The notes under the pieces are model-generated. The model was not told where the DNA came from, searched no databases, and saw only the letters and a program-made list of their open reading frames with translations. A stretch of 64,000 nucleotides of DNA from Carcharhinus amblyrhynchos (Eukaryota), in contig OZ336885.1 in assembly GCA_965287045.1 (NCBI GenBank), positions 22,072,001 through 22,136,000 on the forward strand, written 5' to 3'. The translations under genes and the position numbers were made by a program. The stretch's first letter is position 1; every line of letters starts with the position of its first letter. This document shows positions 30,567 through 59,340 of the stretch, piece by piece.

Positions 30567-33500
30567 CTATCTCACCACAAGACATGATACACAAAGTTTA
30601 GATGGGCCTATACAATCATCATGGCAAAATGCTCCACATCCTTTGCACATGATCATGGCCTTTAATCTGCAAGAACATTTAAAAGTCATTTCATTGACAC
30701 CACTGCTTTCAGCAAATGTCTGAGCAGGAACTGCAGAATTATGATTCCCAAAGTTTGCCTTCTGACTCAGTGACATCACACTTCCAGCAAGAGATGCTGG
30801 AAAGCTACCCATAGAGAGTTCGGAAACTGATGTGTTAGTGATATGACTGAATCCTGTAGTACTGAAGGAAAGTTTAGGAAGTTTGCCATATAACTGCTGC
30901 TGAATACTGAGCTGGGAATTGATGAGAGAATGTTCCGAAGAATGCTGAAATTGTAGACCAGTCTCTTTCATAACCTTTCCAATATTGCAGTCCATCTTAA
31001 TTGGTCCAACATATAATTTGTCTTTGGAATCAAATGGAATGTATGCACCATCATTTATACCAATAATGTCTTGATTTTGGTTATTTCCCCGACATGCAGG
31101 GATATTTTCAGTTTTGATGACTTTAAAGCTTTCATGCAGTTTAGGAAGCCAATCCCTTCTTACATTTGGCATACCCTCCATTCCAATTAAATTCCTCTCT
31201 GGTGAAGTCTGAGAAATGGCTGGCACATGCTCAATAACAGAACCCTTTGACTGAATCTTAATTACTTCTGTTGCTCTACAGCTTCCATCATTTTGCACAA
31301 CTACAGTGTTATGCAAATAACCATGGCTAACCTTTTGCCTCACTGGCATCCCACTGCAAGCCTTCGCTATTACTGAACCAAATATAGTGTTCTGAGTTTC
31401 CAGATTTTTACAAAAGGTTGGTGTGTTCGGAATGTAATAGCCAGACACAGTAGAGCTACTAATTTGCTTTAACGTTTCAGGCATGCTTCTCATTACAGGA
31501 TTTTTCAAATTGGGATTCTGTGTGTTTCCAGAGGAAACATTCATTAGTTCTTTGCTACCATCTTCAAAACTGCAAGCAGCTGGTGTTATTTTGTGTGTTG
31601 CTGTCCCAGACTCTTCAACAGGCCTAGAAAGAATTGGCATTCTATTTAGCTGCTCTTGTAATACTGAATCTTCCCCTAGACTTTTACAATCTCTGTCCAA
31701 GACCATCTGCGATTGCACATAATGCTTACTGGATTGCAATACAGTTGATTTCATCTGCTCCAGACGTTTTTGAGACAGATCTCTGAAATCTCCTGACAAT
31801 ATTTTATGCAAATGATAATCGGCTAACTTGATTCCACTGTGTACACCACTGATTATACTTTTGAGATCCGTTGTTTGTGCAACATGATCAATAGTCGACT
31901 GACTGAAATTTCTTTCCTGCTTAGCTTGCGGGCTCTCGGAAGGAATTGGAGGTGGAACAAGCAACTTGGTTATTTCCAATTTTGTACCAGAATGAGACTG
32001 TGGCAAAACCTTCTCTAAAGGAAGGCTGCCCTGTAGTAACTGTGAGACCAAGGGGTTGTTGACTTCAACCGATGACAGTGGTCTATTAAAATTACCAATC
32101 CTTTTCGGCTCCTCAACACTTGGCCGTAGTGAAGAGTCAGTCTGATTTAAATTATACAAAGTTTCAGGCTTGTCGTTCTGACACTCATTTGGTCTTTCAT
32201 CTTTTTGCAGCTGATTCTCCTCCGGCAACTGTAACTGTTTGTGTGGATCACCATTATCAGTCCCTTTGCAGGCATCAGGAATTTCCACAATTACACCACT
32301 TTTAGAACAAACAGGGGCTCTGTCATCTTTAAATATTCTTTCATTTGTGGGTCGTATACAACTTTCATTGGACAGCTGGCTACTTATTTCAACGTTACAA
32401 TACAATCCATTCTTGTTCATGTCACTTCCACAGTTTTGTTTCCCTTTGCTGGTTAGCTGGTCAAAGGCATCCTCTAATACTGCAACATCAGATTCTGTCG
32501 ACTGGCGTCCACCATCTGCCGCTGCCTGCTCTGGTTTGTTAAGATGTTCTTTCACACATTCTTCTGCGTCAACAGAAGCAGAACAGTCATGCTCCTTTTC
32601 AAGTCTCCCAGACTCCAGAGAAACTTTTTGTGCTAATGAATAGCTGGGATCTTTATTGGAACATGTTGATACTATTACAGATGTCAGTTGTTTCTCTGCA
32701 ACATGTGGCTCATGTGACATATCCGGCAATATGCTAGTGTCTAGCTTATTATTTACTTTTACTTCAACACAATCACTCTCCTTTTCTTCATGTGACGGCA
32801 AAGTTAGAGAGCAAGTGACTTGATGGATAAACGGAGATCCGATTTCCTTAATGGTGCATCGATTTACCTCTTGCTCACATGGGTCAATTTCTGGAAATTC
32901 AATTGATAGCTGGGTTGACAAAACATCTGTAGTGCTTGCTTTAGTTTCAATGTCATTACTTGGTAATGAATCAGATGCTGCATTTTTCACCCCCACAACA
33001 TGGACATCCGTAGTGTTGAAAACTACAGTATTCTTTGTTTCTGCAATGACGGTTCCAGCAAAACAATAGTTTTGAAGAGGTTCCTCATTGCAAGCTGTTT
33101 TATCTTGTGGACTAGGCGTCCGAGTTTGATCACAGGGTGAATTCACAGGATTGTCAGTCTCAGAAAGTGAAAGGATCACAGTTTCACATTTAAGATTTTT
33201 GCTAGATTCTGTACAGATATCATCATTGTCTGCTGGCAATTCCAGTGTTTCAGGGACTGCATCATCCTGAAAAATAGTTTCATCACTGTCAGTCTGCCCA
33301 TCAGAAACCACGATGTCACTAAGTTGGGAAACAGTAACTTGGTTAGATTCTTGCACATCCAGCACCAACTCTGGTGATTTACTGCTAATTACAGTATAAC
33401 TGGCATCACCACCCAATTCAGTTTGCTGGATGTCATCTGCTGTCATCAATTTATTTTGTGTTGTGTCAATTAGATTGCTTTCTACACATTCTTCGATTAT

Positions 33501-33893
33501 AACACCTTGCTTAACACTAATTTCTCCATCGCTGGGTTTTTCTGGTTCATCTGTTGCGCAGGTTTGGAATAGCTGTGCTCTATACTGATGTTTTGCTGTA
33601 GTTTGTTCAACAACTTTTGTTTTTCCGTCGGCTGGTCCGGGGGAATCAGTGCCCCGTGGTCCACTACCACTACTACCCCTTCCCCCTCCTTCCACTGTAA
33701 CATTGGCAGCTGCAGCTGCTGCAGCCTCCCTTTGTGCCCTGGCTTGCTGAGCACGGGCTTTGATATCTGCAAGTGTTCTGGCACCTGTCCTTTCTCGACT
33801 GACTGTCCCAACTGTAGTGACGATCCTGGGGCATATCTGGTAGGTTGGCTGCCCTTTGACAGCCCAAGGAGGTTTGATTCTTGAGAGTTGAAT
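30567..33893 (-). CDS. ASXL1: ASXL1 large terminal coding exon (3327 nt, 1108 aa + stop): ASXM1 ([10 protein letters not shown]...[12 protein letters not shown]), ASXM2 with LVSQLL box (32034-32051), C-terminal PHD finger (30570-30677)
   Basis: Acceptor ttttgcttccag at 33894. The frame is continuous with the 1042-aa ORF ending [36 protein letters not shown], and TAG is followed by TAA. The ORF-track start at 33695 is an internal GTG. Confidence 0.95.
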
Positions 33894-36800
33894 CTGGAAG
33901 CAAAATAATGCAAATTTATTTAGAATGCTTTTGCAAAACTGGTTCTACACAAAGAAAGCAACTAGTTATACCCTGCGCAACATTTTGGTAGAGACATAGA
34001 TCCTTCTACAATTGCTAATAATTTCAAAACACTAATCTGATGAAACAAAAGGGAAAATTACACATTTAAATCTGAAACAAAAACAGAAAGGACTAAGACT
34101 ACAGAACACATTGTTCAATCTGTAAAGAGAAAAGGCAGGTTATCAGTGTCTGACTTTCAGAACAGGAAGTCATTAACATGCAAACAAAATATATTTTATC
34201 ACCAAACCTGAAATATTCCATACTTTTCCCTCATCTATTCGCACCATGCTGTTATGGTTTACCAATTGAATGTACATTCATAGAAAAATCAGGAATAAAA
34301 AGGAAAGCTTCTTGTTCTAAATAAATAAATCAACAGTACATTCTGGTTCCTGCAAAAAAGAGCTGAGGCGAGTGGTGTGCTTATGCAGTATCTCATCACA
34401 TCCTTTGGATTTCCAAAGCACAACATTAAACTCCAATTAAGTCATCATGTTGGAAAACAAGAATTTCAATCCAAAGTTTCATTTCTTTTTAAAAGATAAT
34501 ACCATATGATGAGGAAGAAACGTTGGTCAAGACACCATGAGAAAACTTTCTGCAACATCGTGGAATCTTTTAGGTCTACTTGAATGTCAAAAATAACTGT
34601 TCAACATTGCTTGAAAAGAAAGCACTACGCTAGATCAGCCCAGAAGGTGGACTGAAGTCCACAATGGGACTTGAACCCATAACACCTGATTCAGACACAG
34701 GTATGCATCAATTGAGCAAAGCTGCTGTAATAGTCTCAGAGAAGACACGTAAATTTTAAGATCTTCAATTTACAAAGCAGAATATATTCCTCATAAAACC
34801 CTGTGTAATTATTAAAACCTATTATCAAAATATCTTTCCTTGCAAAAATGGGTTTTCAACCTGGAATCAGCAATTTGCCTGGAACCAAGCACTTTCAGCA
34901 CAAGATCTCAAGAGTTCAGTAATGTTCAATATGAGCAAACTTACCAATATGTTAGTTCTATTGTAGAAAATATTTTCATTGGTATCCACGAATGCCAGTA
35001 ATGTTTTCCATTGGATTGCTGACAGGATTTGGGATAAGACCCCAGGAGGGCATTAATAATTTCGGGGAACCCCCCGACATAAAGGGCTGAATTTGACCAA
35101 CCCCAAGCTAGCATGTTTCCCACAATGGGGAAATAGGTGAGTACCTGTGCCTGAATCAGGTGTTATGGGTTCAAGTCCCATTGTGGACTTCAGTACACCT
35201 TCTGGGCTGATCTAGCATAGTGCTTTCTTTTCAAGCAATGTTGAACAGTTATTTTTGATATTCAAGTAGACCCAAAAGATTCCATGATGTGGGTGGGTGC
35301 TGCACACACCCAATCTCAACCTTACAATTCAGAGGGCAGGCAGATGCTGGAATTGGCAGCCCACTATCATATTATGGGTCAATTCAGCTCGTTATCAAGC
35401 TAAATGACCCTGATAATTCAGTGCCCACACCATAAATTTGTGGACGGAAGGGTGCGTGCTGGAAGTCTGTTTTTTTAAACTGAAATAGTCAAGGGAAGAT
35501 GTTTGCTCTTCAATCATAGGGCGACCCCTCCACCCCCCAAAATCTCAAGACTGAATACCTACCTTCCTATCCACTCCCTCACTTAACTTCCTCCTCCTCC
35601 TTCATTGATTCAGTCTACACTTTCCACTGCCTTGCAAAAGCAGCCAGCATAATCAAGGACCCCCACGCACTTCAGACATACCTCTCCTTTCCCTCTGCCC
35701 TATGTAATCCATGAACATTACGTTTCTTCTGTATATCACCCAAGAAGCAATACTTTTCATGTACACCAATACACGTGACAACAATAAATAAAAATCAAAC
35801 TACCCTCCCACCCAAATTCCTGTAGCCCTCTGAGCCAAGAACCTGAAATTGCTTGTTACATGGATCCTAGGCCTTGGGCTCCACTTCTAACTGACAATCC
35901 CAGTCTCCTTGAAGCTGCCAGCTAAGTGGATAGGCTGACAGCTCTACGGGGCAAGATATCAAGTCCCACTCGGCCCTCATTAATGAGCCCCACAGCACTT
36001 TTATTGCTCCGGTGTGACATGGAGCCAGTTGGTTCATGCTGTCCTGGCTTCTTGGTAGCTGGTGGGTTGGCTGGGGAGGGACATTGGATTACTTCCATCA
36101 AAAGAAAAATCAGAAAACACTTCCATGAGATTTAACTCATGTGCACTATGGCATATACATGATCAACTACATACCTTATAAATGCACATTTGTCAACCTA
36201 CAGAGCCAATGACCGCCAATATCCAATCAATGGGCACAAATCCAACAATAATTCAAGACAAAAATTTACTTTATTTTAGGCAACAGAACCAGACTTTTTT
36301 GTTTTATAATGCATCTTTTCCATTTACACTTCCTGTATGGGGTCTGGATCAAGCAGTATTGCAAAGAAGAAACCTTTCAACTTAAGAGAATTGTCTGTTT
36401 TAAAATGAAAGCCGCCATAGGAATTTTTTGGCACAGAAAGAGGCCACCTGGCTCATCGTGCTTGTGCCAACCAGCCTCCTCCCACTTTCCAGATTTTGAT
36501 CTGTAATCCTACAGGTTATGGTCCTTCAGGTGCAAATCCAGACACCTTTTAAATTCAAAGTGGTTTTCTGTCTCTACCACCCTTTCAGGCAATGAGTTTC
36601 AGAACCTTACCTCCTTCTGGCTACAACAAAAGCCTCATGGCCACTTTAATCCATGTACCAATCACTTCAAATATATGCCCCCTAGTTTGACGGAATGGAG
36701 ACCCATTCACAGTATCTAAGTTCCTCACAGTTTTGAGCATCTCAATTAGATCTCCCCTCAGCCTTCTCCATTCTAAGCAAAACAGTCCAGCCTGTCCAAA

Positions 36801-37536
36801 CTTTCCTTAAAAGCTGCAATTTTCCAGTTCTGGCAACATCCTCAAATCCTCTAGTGAAATTATATTGTTACTGCAATGAACTGCACATGGAGTACTCATG
36901 TTGTGCCCTGACAAATCTTTTACAGCTCCAGCATAACCTCCCTGCTTTTTTTATTCATTCTTTTGGCTAATAAATCAAAGGATTTCATATATTTTAACCA
37001 CAGATTTGACCTGTCCTGCTATTTAACACCAATATCTTCTGCCTCCACATGATTACCTTTTTGGTCTTTTATGGGCTGTAATCTTTCCTTAGCTTCTTAC
37101 TCAAAGTATTGAGGAAACATTTCTGAGTTCACCTTGATTTTGCTTGCCAATATTCTTTTCATGTCCTTTCTCTGCTTTCTCAATTTCCTTTCTGATTTCA
37201 CCTCATAGTCCCCTCAGCTTTCTATAGCAAGGTGGAATTGAGCTTTTATTTGGCATGAAGTAGAAAGTGGGGAAAATATTTTTCTCAAGCCAGGTTTGGC
37301 TTGAATGGACCACCACATTTCCTTGACTAAACTTTAACTCCAGAAAAACAAAGCAACGCTGTAACTGTCCCAAATTACTTTGCATCTCATCTAAGAAAAG
37401 TAAAATTGAAACTAAAATGATTTTTGCAAGTAATGATTCAACGTTTTTAAAAACACACATACCCTAATAGGTGGCACCTTTGGCTCTTCTTTTGTAGGAT
37501 GTTCTTTTTCTGTCCGAAAGCTATCAATTGCGGTCC
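33497..37536 (-). CDS. Overlapping +1-frame transframe ORF (ASXL1-TF), spliced 37536-37463 + 33893-33497, 156 codons, with EHSY motif
   Basis: ORF-track entries 37447-37653 and 33497-33913 join in frame at the ASXL1 splice junction (CTA TTA GG|A TTC). The ORF starts directly after UCC_UUU_C; EHSY is at 33569-33580. Confidence 0.78.
34555..35290. repeat. 149-bp inverted duplication (34555-34703 and 35142-35290) with 6 mismatches
   Basis: Manual alignment of one arm to the reverse complement of the other: 143/149 identical, no gaps, 438-nt spacer. Confidence 0.9.
36390..37200 (-). mobile_element. Degraded CR1 LINE 3' portion
   Basis: Antisense CR1 phrases (ctcaattagatctcccctcagccttctc; tctggcaacatcctc). 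Confidence 0.65.
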
Positions 37537-38213
37537 GAAAGGACTGATGATCATCAAGACGTGGCTTCTTCTCAGGGCCAGAGGTGGAGGCACTATGTTC
37601 AGAGGACTTTCTCTTTTGGTCTTTGGACTCTCCGGAATTGTGCTCCAACTCACTTTTCAAAGCAGCGCTCCTTAGAGTTAAACAGGTGATCTGATCCTTA
37701 GAAATTCCAGCAGGTTGCACATCAGTCAATTCTAAACGTCCATCAGATGTGATATGTTCTTGAGATTGTACACCAACTGGTCTTTCTGCAAGCAGTATAG
37801 GTTTGGAGTTTAAGGCAGATTTATTTGGAAGAATTTCTTCTAGCTGTCCAGGTCTAGCTTCATTTTTAATTAAACTCAGCTGATCTTCATCTGCACAGCT
37901 AACAGCATGAAACACCTTGGCTTCATGATTTTGCTGTTTCTGGCTCCTCGTATCTTGAGAAGAGACTGTACATGAAACTGTTTTTTCACTTGGTTCAGGA
38001 AGTTCAATCTGTGTTTCTTTAATAAGACTCCGCTTCACTCTGCATTTGAGGTCCACCTTTGAACTTCTAGTACATTTCCTTACTCTTTCATCCTGCTTTT
38101 TAACCGGACTTTGCTGTTTGGATGGCCCTGCTAATACAGGTGAACTGGCTTCATTTTCTATTTCCACTTGTACGGATGTCTGATGTTCTGATTCTTCTTT
38201 TGACAAGCCCAGT
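37463..38213 (-). CDS. ASXL1: ASXL1 penultimate exon (751 nt): [11 protein letters not shown]...[37 protein letters not shown]
   Basis: Lies inside ORF 37412-38260. Acceptor gttgacag at 38214 and donor GTATGT at 37462. It ends in [12 protein letters not shown] as in ASXL1. Confidence 0.92.
37535..37543 (-). promoter_or_regulatory. +1 ribosomal frameshift motif UCC_UUU_CGG in the ASXL1 zero frame
   Basis: The minus strand reads CAT CAG TCC TTT CGG ACC. This is the UCC_UUU_CG class used by influenza PA-X, at the S-F-R position of ASXL1. Confidence 0.75.
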
Positions 38214-41540: not shown

Positions 41541-41646
41541 TTCTGCCCATAATAATCTTCAAAAAAATTCTCTTTCCACAGCTCTACTTTCTTTTCTTTC
41601 TCCATTTCTTGACGTAGGCGAAGTTGCATTTCAGGTGTGAATTCAC
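41541..41646 (-). CDS. ASXL1: ASXL1 exon (106 nt), end of DEUBAD: [35 protein letters not shown]
   Basis: Manual translation. Acceptor ttatgtag and donor GTAAGC; phases agree with the flanking exons. Confidence 0.93.
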
Positions 41647-43540: not shown

Positions 43541-43637
43541 CTTCTGCTAATCGCTCCTTCCACCCCTGAGCAGCAGAGGTGAAGAACTCATTATTTAGGG
43601 CTGAACTGCTGAGACGCATTATACCATCAGTACCAAC
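43541..43637 (-). CDS. ASXL1: ASXL1 exon (97 nt), DEUBAD: [33 protein letters not shown]
   Basis: Manual translation. Acceptor tttacccttctag and donor GTAAAA; contains the LNNEFF (NEF) BAP1-activating motif. Confidence 0.93.
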
Positions 43638-50568: not shown

Positions 50569-51110
50569 ACGTAAGAACATAAGAACATTAGTAGGAGCAG
50601 GAGTAGGCCATCTAGCCCTTCGAGCCTGCCCCGCCATTCAATAAGATCATGGCTGATCTGAAGTAGCTCAGTTCCACTTTCCCGCTTTCTTCCCATAACC
50701 CTTAATCCCCTTGCCTACCAAAAACCTATCTACCCGCGTCTTAAATATATTTAGCGAGGTAGCCTCCACCACTTCAACGGGCAGAGAATTCCAGAGATTC
50801 ACCACCCTGAGTGAAGAAGTTCCTCCTCAACTCCGTTCTAAACTGCTCCCCCCTTATCTTGAGGCTGTGCCCTCTAGTCCTGTCCTTTCTGAGCCGGAAG
50901 AATCTCTCTACCTCTACCCTATCCATCCCCTTCATTATCTTATATGTCTCTATAAGATCCCCCCTCATCCTTCTAAACTCCAACGAGTACAGACCCAGTC
51001 TATTCAGCCTCTCTTCATAGTCCAACCCCCTCATCTCCAATATCAGCCTAGTGAACCTCCTCTGCACTCCCTCCAAGGCCAAGATATCCTTGCGCAAGTG
51101 CGGCGACCAA
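50569..51110 (-). mobile_element. Young 5'-truncated CR1 LINE 3' end, same subfamily as 48741-49204
   Basis: WSPHLRKDILALEGVQRRFTRLI...RTRGHSLKIRGEQFRTELRRNFFTQ; tandem TAAGAACA tail. Confidence 0.9.
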
Positions 51111-51606
51111 CGTAGAGAAAATGTAATAGAATTAGCAGTATTTTGTACACCAGTCAAAGCTAATGTACTCCTAAGCTAATTTCCATTAAAAAACATTAAT
51201 AAATAAGCTCAGCGTGAGTAAATCTGTTTGGGCTCACAAATGTTGGTTCTTGCAGATAAAACATTTTAAAAAGAGCAAAAAATCCACAAAAAACCAAAAA
51301 TGCTGAAAATGTTTCCATCAGCCAAACAGGTGCTGTCAAGGGAAAAAAGATAGTTTTCAGGTCAATCATTTGATGAAAGCCTTTGACCTGAAACATCAAT
51401 TCTGTTTCTCCATCCCACATACAAAATAAAATTAAAGGTTACACCATGAGCAGCAGCAAGCGAGTCAGAATCAATACATTGGTTAGAGGCACTGAAGATG
51501 TCTCCAAATTAGCTATCATCCAGAATGAGGAAGAGTCAAACATTTCTAATTTATCTGCTTTTGTCTTTCCACTCATCGCAATTTGCCTTTAAATAAAAGC
51601 GTATTA

Positions 51607-51825
<219 letters not shown>

Positions 51826-57340: not shown

Positions 57341-58866
57341 TAGAACATAGAACAGTACAGCACAGGATAAGCCCTTCGGCCCTCGATGTTGTGCCAAGCT
57401 ATGCCCGAACCCAAGATCAAGCTATCCCACTTCCCATCATTCTGGTGTACTCCATATGCCTATCCAATAACCGCTTGCAAGTTCCTAAAGTGTCCAACTC
57501 CACGATCACAGCAGGCAGTTCCACACCCCAACCACTCTGAGTAAAGAATCTACCTCAGACATCCCTCCTACATCTCCCACCATGAACCTTATAGTTACAT
57601 CCCCTAGCAACAGCTACATCTACCCGAGGAAATAGTCTCTGAACATCCACCTATCTATCCCTCTCATCATCTTATAAACCTCTCAAGTCATTTCTCATCC
57701 TCCTCCACTCTAAAGAGAAAAGCCCTAGCTCCCTCAACCTTTCCTCGTAAGACCTACCCTCCAAACAAGGCAACATTCTGGTAAATCTCCTCTGCACTCT
57801 CTCCAATGCTTCACAACCTTCTTATAGGGAGGTGACCAGAAATGCACACAATATCCCAAATGTGATCTCATCAAGGTTCTGTATGGTTGTAGCATAACCC
57901 CACGACTCAAACTCAAACCTCCTGTTAATAAACGCTAACACACTATAAGCCTTCTTCATGGCTCCATCTACTTGACAGGCAACCTTCAGAGATCTGTGGG
58001 TATGAACCCCAAGATCTCTGTTCCTCCACATTCCTCAGGACCCTGCCTTTGACCCTGTAATCCACATTCAACTTTGTCCTACCAAAGTGAATCACTTCAT
58101 ACTTATCAGGGTTAAACACCATCTGCATCCTATCAATGTCTCTTTGCAGCCGACAACAGCCCTTCACCTCGCCCACTACTCCACCAATCTTGGTGTCATC
58201 AGCAAATTTACTGACCCACCCTTCAGCCCCCTCCTCCAAGTCATTAATAAAAATCACAAATAGCTGAGGACCCAGCACTGACCCCTGTGGTACACCACTG
58301 GTTACTTGTCTCCACTCTGAAAATTTTCCATCCACCACCACCCTCTGTCTTTATGAGATAGCCAGTTACTTATCCAATCAGCCAAATTTCCTTCTATCCC
58401 ACACCTCCTTACTTCATGAGCCGACCATGGGGAATCTTATCAAGTGCCATACTAAAATCCATGTATACGACATCAACTGCTCTACCTTTGTAGACACACT
58501 TGGTTACCTCCTCAAAGAATTCAATTAAAATTTGTGAGGCAGGACTTGCCCCTCACAAAACCATGCTGGCTATCCCAGAAGATTAAGCTGTATCTTTCCA
58601 AATGGTCATAAATCATATCCCTAAAGACCTTTTCCATTAACTTACCACTGTAATAAGGCTAACTGGCCTATAATTACCAGGGTCATTCCTATTTCCTTTC
58701 TTGAAGAGAGGAACAACATTTGCCACTCTCCAGTCCTCTCGCACTATCCCCGTGGACACTGAGGGCCCAAAGATCAAAGCTAAAGGCTCCGTAATCTCAG
58801 CCCTTGCCTCCCAAAGTATCCTAGGATGTATCCCATCTGGCCCAGGGGACTTAGCAACCGTCAGGT
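57341..58866 (-). mobile_element. CR1 LINE 3' 1.5 kb (RT to tail), frameshifted
   Basis: VTSGVPQGSVLGPQLFVIFINDLEEG...SKFADDTKIGG RT motifs; tail TAGAACATAGAACA at 57341. Confidence 0.9.
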
Positions 58867-59340
58867 TTTTGCTGACTAGGTTGCCAGAAGAAATAGATGC
58901 CTCTGCCTCTCTCTCTCTCTCCAGAGATATTCTGAAAGATCTAGGAGTGTTAACTTAAGGCAAGCAAGCATGCCTGTGTTTTGCTAACTAATTTTGAAGA
59001 GCTTCAGGGATTGTTGCAAATTCTGAATTAATTCTTTAATTCCATTTATTCATTCCATAGGAGGACTGATGCCTGAATTGGGACTCAAGATACGTTAACA
59101 ACTAAGAATTTTATCTTGTCACGTTTCTGTATTATTCAAGGTTAACCTAATTCATTTGTTAGAATTAAGCTGTTATTCATGAAGTTTTTGATAAAAGCTT
59201 TCCAGTGTGTCAGCAGAACTGCATCTGGAGTGAAACATCTCATCCATGCTAATACCAAAACAGAATATTGTCGACTTCTTTTAAGGATCTAGTCTGGCTT
59301 CATGATATATCTTGGGATTTCTAATCTGATCTCTTAGTAT
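58867..59340 (+). mobile_element. Partial LTR-like element related to 21130-21606
   Basis: Shared 3' phrases ctaataccaaaa and gatatatcttgggatttctaatctgatctctta. Confidence 0.4.

Follow-up and report, generated by a model that had tools for sequence, protein, structure and literature searches.

The last coding exon of an ASXL gene in Carcharhinus amblyrhynchos encodes, in its +1 frame only, the tetrapeptide EHSY, which raises the question of whether this HCF-1-binding-type motif is the working end of a frameshift product or an accident of the overlapping zero frame. The window (the whole stretch of 64,000 nucleotides that was analysed) holds the 3' part of this gene on its minus strand. A transframe ORF of ASXL1 (ASXL1-TF), its shift site and a C-terminal EH[N/S]Y have been described across 200 ASXL1 and 129 ASXL2 sequences, together with a proposed link to HCF-1, itself a BAP1 partner; the ghostshark Callorhinchus was found to carry the CGG variant of the site, the human TF region was predicted to be disordered, and ASXL3 was said to have neither the TF ORF nor the motif (Dinan, Atkins and Firth 2017, PMC5644247). 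For ASXL1, both the motif of the window and the TF ORF are already published there. The first-pass annotation of this DNA took the shift to exchange the PHD-containing tail for one with an HCF-1 motif, which is the hypothesis of the same paper, and it is as a hypothesis that the present analysis supports it. We think it likely that EHSY is the functional end of a shark ASXL1-TF that would be reached by a +1 slip, and that the module arose once, before the paralogues split.

The anatomy of the locus is seen directly. The host gene is ASXL1, its last coding exon being 96.85% identical to Mustelus asterias ASXL1 and the gene clustering with ASXL1 in a 17-row tree. DEUBAD/ASXH is encoded on the minus strand by exons at 51643..51809 (PF13919; 5' edge approximate), 43541..43637 (BAP1-binding) and 41541..41646, the first two of which are retained in ASXL1-TF; the exon at 41541..41646 ends in a phase-2 donor. 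The penultimate coding exon (37463..38213, minus strand) is separated from the last by an intron of 3569 nt (33894..37462, GT..AG, phase 0) that was placed by homology to orthologous proteins rather than from RNA. In the zero frame, the last coding exon (30567..33893, minus strand) encodes 1108 aa including the Asx PHD at about 30695-30576, which is missing from the predicted frameshift product. The acceptor of the first DEUBAD exon (51810-51805, minus strand) is a tandem AAG-CAG of the NAGNAG type that could add or drop one codon. The ASXL1 introns also contain what we take to be LINE-like reverse-transcriptase fragments at 50774-51175, 57943-58350 and 58637-58954 (minus strand), and the window has no Rfam matches.

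Within the penultimate exon lies an in-frame UCC_UUU_CGG (37535..37543, minus strand; zero frame S-F-R), the predicted +1 shift site. When 37463 is spliced to 33893 and the slip is placed after UUU, the TF runs for 156 codons, comprising 25 in the penultimate exon, the 25th straddling the junction, and 131 in the last exon (33500..33892, minus strand; no Pfam family), where it meets a TAA stop at 33497..33499. The locus thus has the three hallmarks of ASXL1-TF, namely a UCC_UUU_CG[U/G] site, a +1 ORF of about 125-165 codons that enters the last exon, and a C-terminal EH[N/S]Y; no other +1 ORF in the two-exon coding pieces of ASXL1, ASXL2 and ASXL3 exceeds 111 codons. The predicted product retains DEUBAD but lacks about 1130 residues, the PHD finger among them. 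Gene, site, motif and proposed HCF-1 role are those of the published ASXL1-TF, and the length of 156 codons stands beside 162 in ghostshark and 153 in human (PMC5644247). Unlike the published ASXL-TF, shark ASXL1 has a second in-frame site, AGC_UUU_CGG (37514..37522, minus strand), seven codons downstream, which also leads into the open TF. The doubled SFR behind it, SFRTxIDSFRT, is present in all 15 named chondrichthyan ASXL1 proteins including Callorhinchus, and in the shark gene both of its Phe codons are UUU followed by C (probability 0.037 given the peptide). No RNA structure was detected 3' of the shift site in the 72 nt up to the exon end (z=+1.43), and a search with the TF peptides of the three paralogues gave no match at E<=1 among 1061 candidates. 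Internal initiation was considered and rejected, as the offsets of +1 AUGs near the site differ among the three paralogues and no such AUG occurs at that place in the published human region.

The ASXL1 site conforms to the YCC_UUU_CG type of PA-X and PLEKHM2. PLEKHM2 has the identical UCC_UUU_CGG with the same predicted Q-S-F-G-P junction; in reporters the site gives about 1.3% +1 shifting with a junction confirmed by MS, and it was reported to be sufficient alone (PMC12551717). The PLEKHM2 shift is thus experimentally proven and its transframe part is predicted to form a helical domain, whereas that of ASXL1-TF is a short linear motif, and frameshifting in ASXL1 was called 'not experimentally validated' in 2025 (PMC12551717). 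Influenza A PA-X likewise has UUU_C in the P-site and UCC in the E-site, but CGU in the A-site; in that system CGG halves shifting, and E-site codons other than UCC, such as AGC, lower it by 40-70% (PMC3498833). As both AGC and CGG reduce shifting in PA-X, the second shark site should be the weaker of the two.

The first-pass annotation had placed EHSY in the +1 frame between an Ile codon (ATA) and a Ser codon (TCC), 23 codons ahead of the transframe stop and over zero-frame YRAQLF, and each of these points holds. The core lies at 33569..33580 on the minus strand, the TAA at 33499-33497 follows at that distance, the zero frame over the motif reads HQYRAQLFQ, and neither of the last two coding exons has a [DE]HxY in its zero frame. 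The 4-mer on its own is unremarkable: the six frames of the window contain seven [DE]HxY matches, and EHxY appears at the motif spot in about 7% of 100,000 synonymous recodings of the zero-frame peptide. The other six matches lie in stop-to-stop frames of just 21-71 codons, and a +1 frame that is open from the shift site and also carries EHxY arises in 2.5e-4 of the 100,000 recodings.

Conservation of the motif can be followed in protein records, because a +1 EH[NS]Y forces a zero-frame shadow, [RG][TA]QL followed by a codon beginning with U or C. Paralogue classes were assigned by sequence patterns, which left 8 of 185 records unclassed and gave 105 ASXL1 records; six of these could not be anchored and were dropped, and 95 of the remaining 99 have the shadow, which bears out the conservation that the first-pass annotation had proposed as a check. 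The shadow varies solely as the +1 frame permits, through R/G, T/A and L/F/Q/Y/R swaps. The four misses consist of two records that visibly switch frame, one that is cut short and one partial prediction. In all 58 distinct ASXL1 15-mers, which share descent and are not 58 independent events, the residue three before the shadow is one of the four coded by NAY (D, H, N or Y; background 15%), and the codon of the residue that follows never begins with G. This pattern implies an Ile (or Thr) conserved at position H-4 of the ASXL1 +1 frame, and H-4 is Ile wherever the +1 frame is readable; the DNA gives Ile in shark ASXL1, shark ASXL3 and the published human ASXL1. Outside its figure logos, the text of PMC5644247 does not name this residue. 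These data show selection on the +1 frame, and a 2026 preprint reports selection in both frames of ASXL1 and ASXL2 as well as a human ASXL1 TF-frame peptide in PeptideAtlas (bioRxiv 10.64898/2026.05.28.727796). That peptide could stem from a frameshift mutation, for which one record offers a comparison: P0137, a Logan contig of 1239 nt and one of the two frame-switching misses, contains a rodent-like ASXL1 ORF that crosses in mid-exon from the zero frame into TF and terminates with EHNY; the switch may be natural, induced or an assembly indel. Metagenome scans found no orthologous vertebrate ASXL DNA, and 75 representative matches, of which 18 were looked up by name, included no recognisable ASXL of lamprey, hagfish or an invertebrate.

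The genome contains three matches to the TF region, those on C7 and C8 being ASXL2 and ASXL3, the latter assigned by 98% identity to Mustelus ASXL3 and by the tree. The layout is the same in all three paralogues. In ASXL3 (G000:C8:72753221-72743787), UCC_UUU_CAG occupies the homologous site (72753221-72753213), 145 open +1 codons span the last intron, and EHNY (72743843-72743832) lies 15 codons before the stop. ASXL2 (G000:C7:51115389-51112316) has the published CAG_GUC_UCU -2 site and EHNY, and upstream of the -2 site it has UUA_UUU_CGG and GAC_UUU_CCC where ASXL1 has its two sites; counted from the first UUU_C, 185 codons of the +1 frame are open. Shark ASXL3 therefore differs from the published ASXL-TF in having both ORF and motif, and shark ASXL2 in having UUU_C at the ASXL1 position with an open +1 frame. 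Conditional on the zero-frame peptide, the probability of an open +1 frame with EHxY is 2.4e-4 in ASXL2 and 7.9e-4 in ASXL3, the position in ASXL3 being preset by homology. The ASXL2 and ASXL3 sites conform only partly to YCC_UUU_CG, and that of ASXL3 lacks the CGN A-site codon of known shift sites. In the human ASXL2 region shown by Dinan et al., CCA_UUU_CAG and CCC_UUU_CUC stand seven codons apart at the corresponding position, within an open +1 stretch (PMC5644247). In a comparison that was not controlled for amino-acid make-up, ASXL1 and ASXL3 share 29/47 identical codons inside TF vs 66/159 outside (p=0.011); the same contrast is borderline for ASXL1 and ASXL2 (p=0.067), and there is no rise for ASXL2 and ASXL3 (12/27 vs 66/142, p=0.66).

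Protein records of ASXL3 give a mixed picture. The shadow is present in 11 of 13 chondrichthyan proteins, one of the other two fitting EHxY and one not, and in none of 27 from other groups (29 records, two of them unanchored), 15 of which have R[AT]HL[LF] and could read EH[ITM]Y. F-[QR] is found at the ASXL3 site in 7/7 sharks and 0/5 batoids, and four of these five batoids retain the shadow, which weakens the protein-level case for an ASXL3-TF. As a rule, ASXL3 proteins conserve the zero-frame helix around the shadow, which may therefore reflect zero-frame constraint. Forced +1 stops in the TF span occur in 0/25 ASXL3 proteins, chondrichthyan and bony alike, and so do not discriminate between the groups. 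The DNA reading of ASXL3 is from one genome; reads from four sequencing runs that matched the locus at 80% likeness were mostly intronic repeats and gave no variant or junction of the TF region. Among the ASXL2 records, 25 of 30 include the upstream region: ten have both Phe and shadow, three have Phe in a sequence that is truncated or has an internal deletion, ten, mostly teleost-like, have neither, probably through a single loss, and two elopomorphs have the shadow without Phe. Since these two retain the shadow, ASXL2 appears independent of entry at UUU_C. Both elopomorph proteins, P0148 (Megalops) and P0164 (Aldrovandia), keep the QVSP of the -2 site along with the shadow, though teleosts have reportedly lost ASXL2-TF.

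An open frame, the motif and a UUU_C in one and the same place are common to ASXL1, ASXL2 and ASXL3, which makes a single origin of the module, ahead of the paralogue split, the most likely history. Bony vertebrates would then probably have lost TF from ASXL3, and the -2 site of ASXL2 is probably a later gain. The pair of UUU_C seven codons apart in shark ASXL1, shark ASXL2 and human ASXL2 suggests a single ancestral +1 entry and not two separate inventions. We advance more tentatively, as a proposal that may well prove wrong, that a +1 shift at tandem UUU_C giving a PHD-less, HCF-1-docking ASXL predates the ASXL1/2/3 split, that sharks use it in all three genes, and that human ASXL2 keeps both entries. 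If so, two supposedly separate inventions would be one ancestral recoding event, which would remove the main argument for splicing, and human ASXL2 with both ancestral UUU_C may yield a second TF product, one whose +1-encoded tail is longer. A literature search on an ASXL3 TF or a shared ancestral site, subscription papers lying outside its coverage, found only the 2017 paper (PMC5644247); the text of the 2026 preprint does not mention ASXL3, and its supplements may list further paralogues (bioRxiv 10.64898/2026.05.28.727796). The ASXL3 member, the shared tandem UUU_C and the Ile at H-4 thus appear to be additions to the literature, drawn from the DNA of one genome and from protein shadows.

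Slippage, its rate and the binding of HCF-1 are the steps that we infer. In the proposed mechanism, tRNA-Phe on UUU at 37540-37538 would slip +1 onto UUC in about 1% of ribosomes, and AGC_UUU_CGG may offer a weaker second chance of slipping, so that the tandem site of sharks may compensate for CGG. The shifted ribosomes would read 156 +1 codons across the last intron and terminate in the last exon, and because the TF stop is in the last exon mRNA decay is not expected (PMC5644247). The product would keep the N-terminus and the BAP1-binding DEUBAD, lack the PHD and end in an I-x-x-E-H-S-Y-S tail that would dock in the Kelch pocket of HCF-1. The result would be a PR-DUB variant with its own HCF-1 site, adding to or competing with that of BAP1.

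The binding step can be compared with a deep mutational scan of HCF1 ligands, which favours a hydrophobic residue at H-4, a small x and an uncharged residue at Y+1 and disfavours Pro at Y+2 (bioRxiv 10.64898/2026.03.19.712392). The TF, which has no Pfam domain, carries the [D/E]HxY core, and the extended motif I-S-I-E-H-S-Y-S-K (33563..33589, minus strand) combines Ile at H-4, a small x, Ser at Y+1 and no Pro at Y+2; compared by eye with the rules of the text rather than by a PSSM score, the motifs of all three shark paralogues follow the extended rules. Core and flanks are thus like those of the scanned HCF-1 motif, whereas the shark motif exists in an overlapping frame alone. The main text of that preprint makes no mention of ASXL (bioRxiv 10.64898/2026.03.19.712392), and our literature search found no published binding test of the TF motif. 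Complex prediction with the bamboo-shark HCF-1 Kelch domain and the last 48 TF residues, run without alignments and by a method unproven on peptides, scored 0.72, 0.01 and 0.02, with a median below the mark, and is given no weight on either side of the binding question. The PDB matches included no solved structure of the HCF-1 Kelch domain. HCF-like genes were located in the genome with the Kelch_HCF profile, HCF-1 not having been found by a Kelch_3 search: there are three multi-exon HCF-type Kelch genes and one match with six stops, at C3 3.46-3.49 Mb, C6 119.37-119.41, C15 77.22-77.24 and C20 9.652 Mb, the six-stop match looking like an intronless HCF pseudogene.

Four other readings of these data can be weighed against a slip-dependent ASXL1-TF that is shared by the paralogues. 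That EHSY in the window is simply a by-product of zero-frame R-A-Q-L-F is very improbable: the frequency of EHxY in recodings and the six further matches in the window agree with it, but the joint probability with the open frame does not, the variation of the zero frame is exactly what a conserved +1 frame would allow, EH[N/S]Y is kept in all TF sequences of Dinan et al. (PMC5644247), and the two-frame selection was confirmed independently (bioRxiv 10.64898/2026.05.28.727796). A more serious reading accepts ASXL1-TF and takes the +1 frame of shark ASXL3 for a zero-frame by-product or an untranslated relic. The batoids that retain RTQL without the Phe, the absence of the shadow in Narcine, the CAG in the A-site, the derivation of the DNA from a single genome and the report of no conserved TF in ASXL3 (PMC5644247) all fit this; yet the 7.9e-4 is already conditional on the zero-frame peptide, UCC_UUU_C is retained with F-[QR] in 7/7 shark ASXL3, and both the Ile at H-4 and a Cys at Y+1 are intact, so that we regard a relic as unlikely while giving it appreciable weight.

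The TF and its motif could also be real and be reached by alternative splicing, with the CAG just before the site as candidate acceptor. As the intron before the penultimate exon is in phase 2, any internal acceptor at a zero-frame codon boundary would join DEUBAD to the +1 frame; each of the three shark paralogues has such a CAG before its site, and splicing is preferred by the 2026 preprint on the ground that two unrelated frameshift mechanisms would be unparsimonious (bioRxiv 10.64898/2026.05.28.727796). Yet the true acceptor is preceded by 14 pyrimidines, 11 of them T, and these CAGs by 11, 11 and 7 (6, 3 and 4 T); within the open +1 stretch of ASXL1 no YAG reaches 12 pyrimidines in 20, and openness of the +1 frame upstream of the site is as the peptide predicts (P=0.50, 0.41, 0.13). 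Dinan et al. found no such isoform (PMC5644247), the conserved UCC_UUU_CG would stay unexplained, and a shared ancestral site would remove the objection from parsimony, which together make splicing an improbable route. It is still less probable that a translated and selected TF uses I-x-x-EH[NS]Y for another partner (for example HCF-2 or another Kelch protein) or as a degron. Only 66 of 347 human D/EHxY peptides bind HCF1 (bioRxiv 10.64898/2026.03.19.712392), the genome has three HCF-like Kelch genes to choose from, and the motif lies just 15-28 residues from the C-terminus; against this, the core and all four HCF1 flanking rules recur in three paralogues, and HCF-1 is already a partner of BAP1.

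A slip-dependent ASXL1-TF would also bear on disease. ASXL1 truncations are reportedly among the most frequent mutations in myeloid malignancy and a cause of Bohring-Opitz syndrome, and one proposal sees in them dysregulated copies of the natural frameshift product (PMC5644247). It is disputed both whether this product is made and whether frameshifting or splicing would make it (PMC12551717; bioRxiv 10.64898/2026.05.28.727796). New handles on the dispute are the ASXL3 member and the shared entry position, which can be mutated in reporters and includes the two overlooked UUU_C of human ASXL2, and the H-4 residue is a sharper binding control than the motif core alone. Two smaller observations concern the sequence near the ASXL1 site. 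The published human TF region has an extra UCC_UUU_CCC 13 codons upstream of the known site and within the open +1 stretch (PMC5644247). SFPEKK is common in ASXL1 of bony vertebrates, and sharks have SGPEKK instead.
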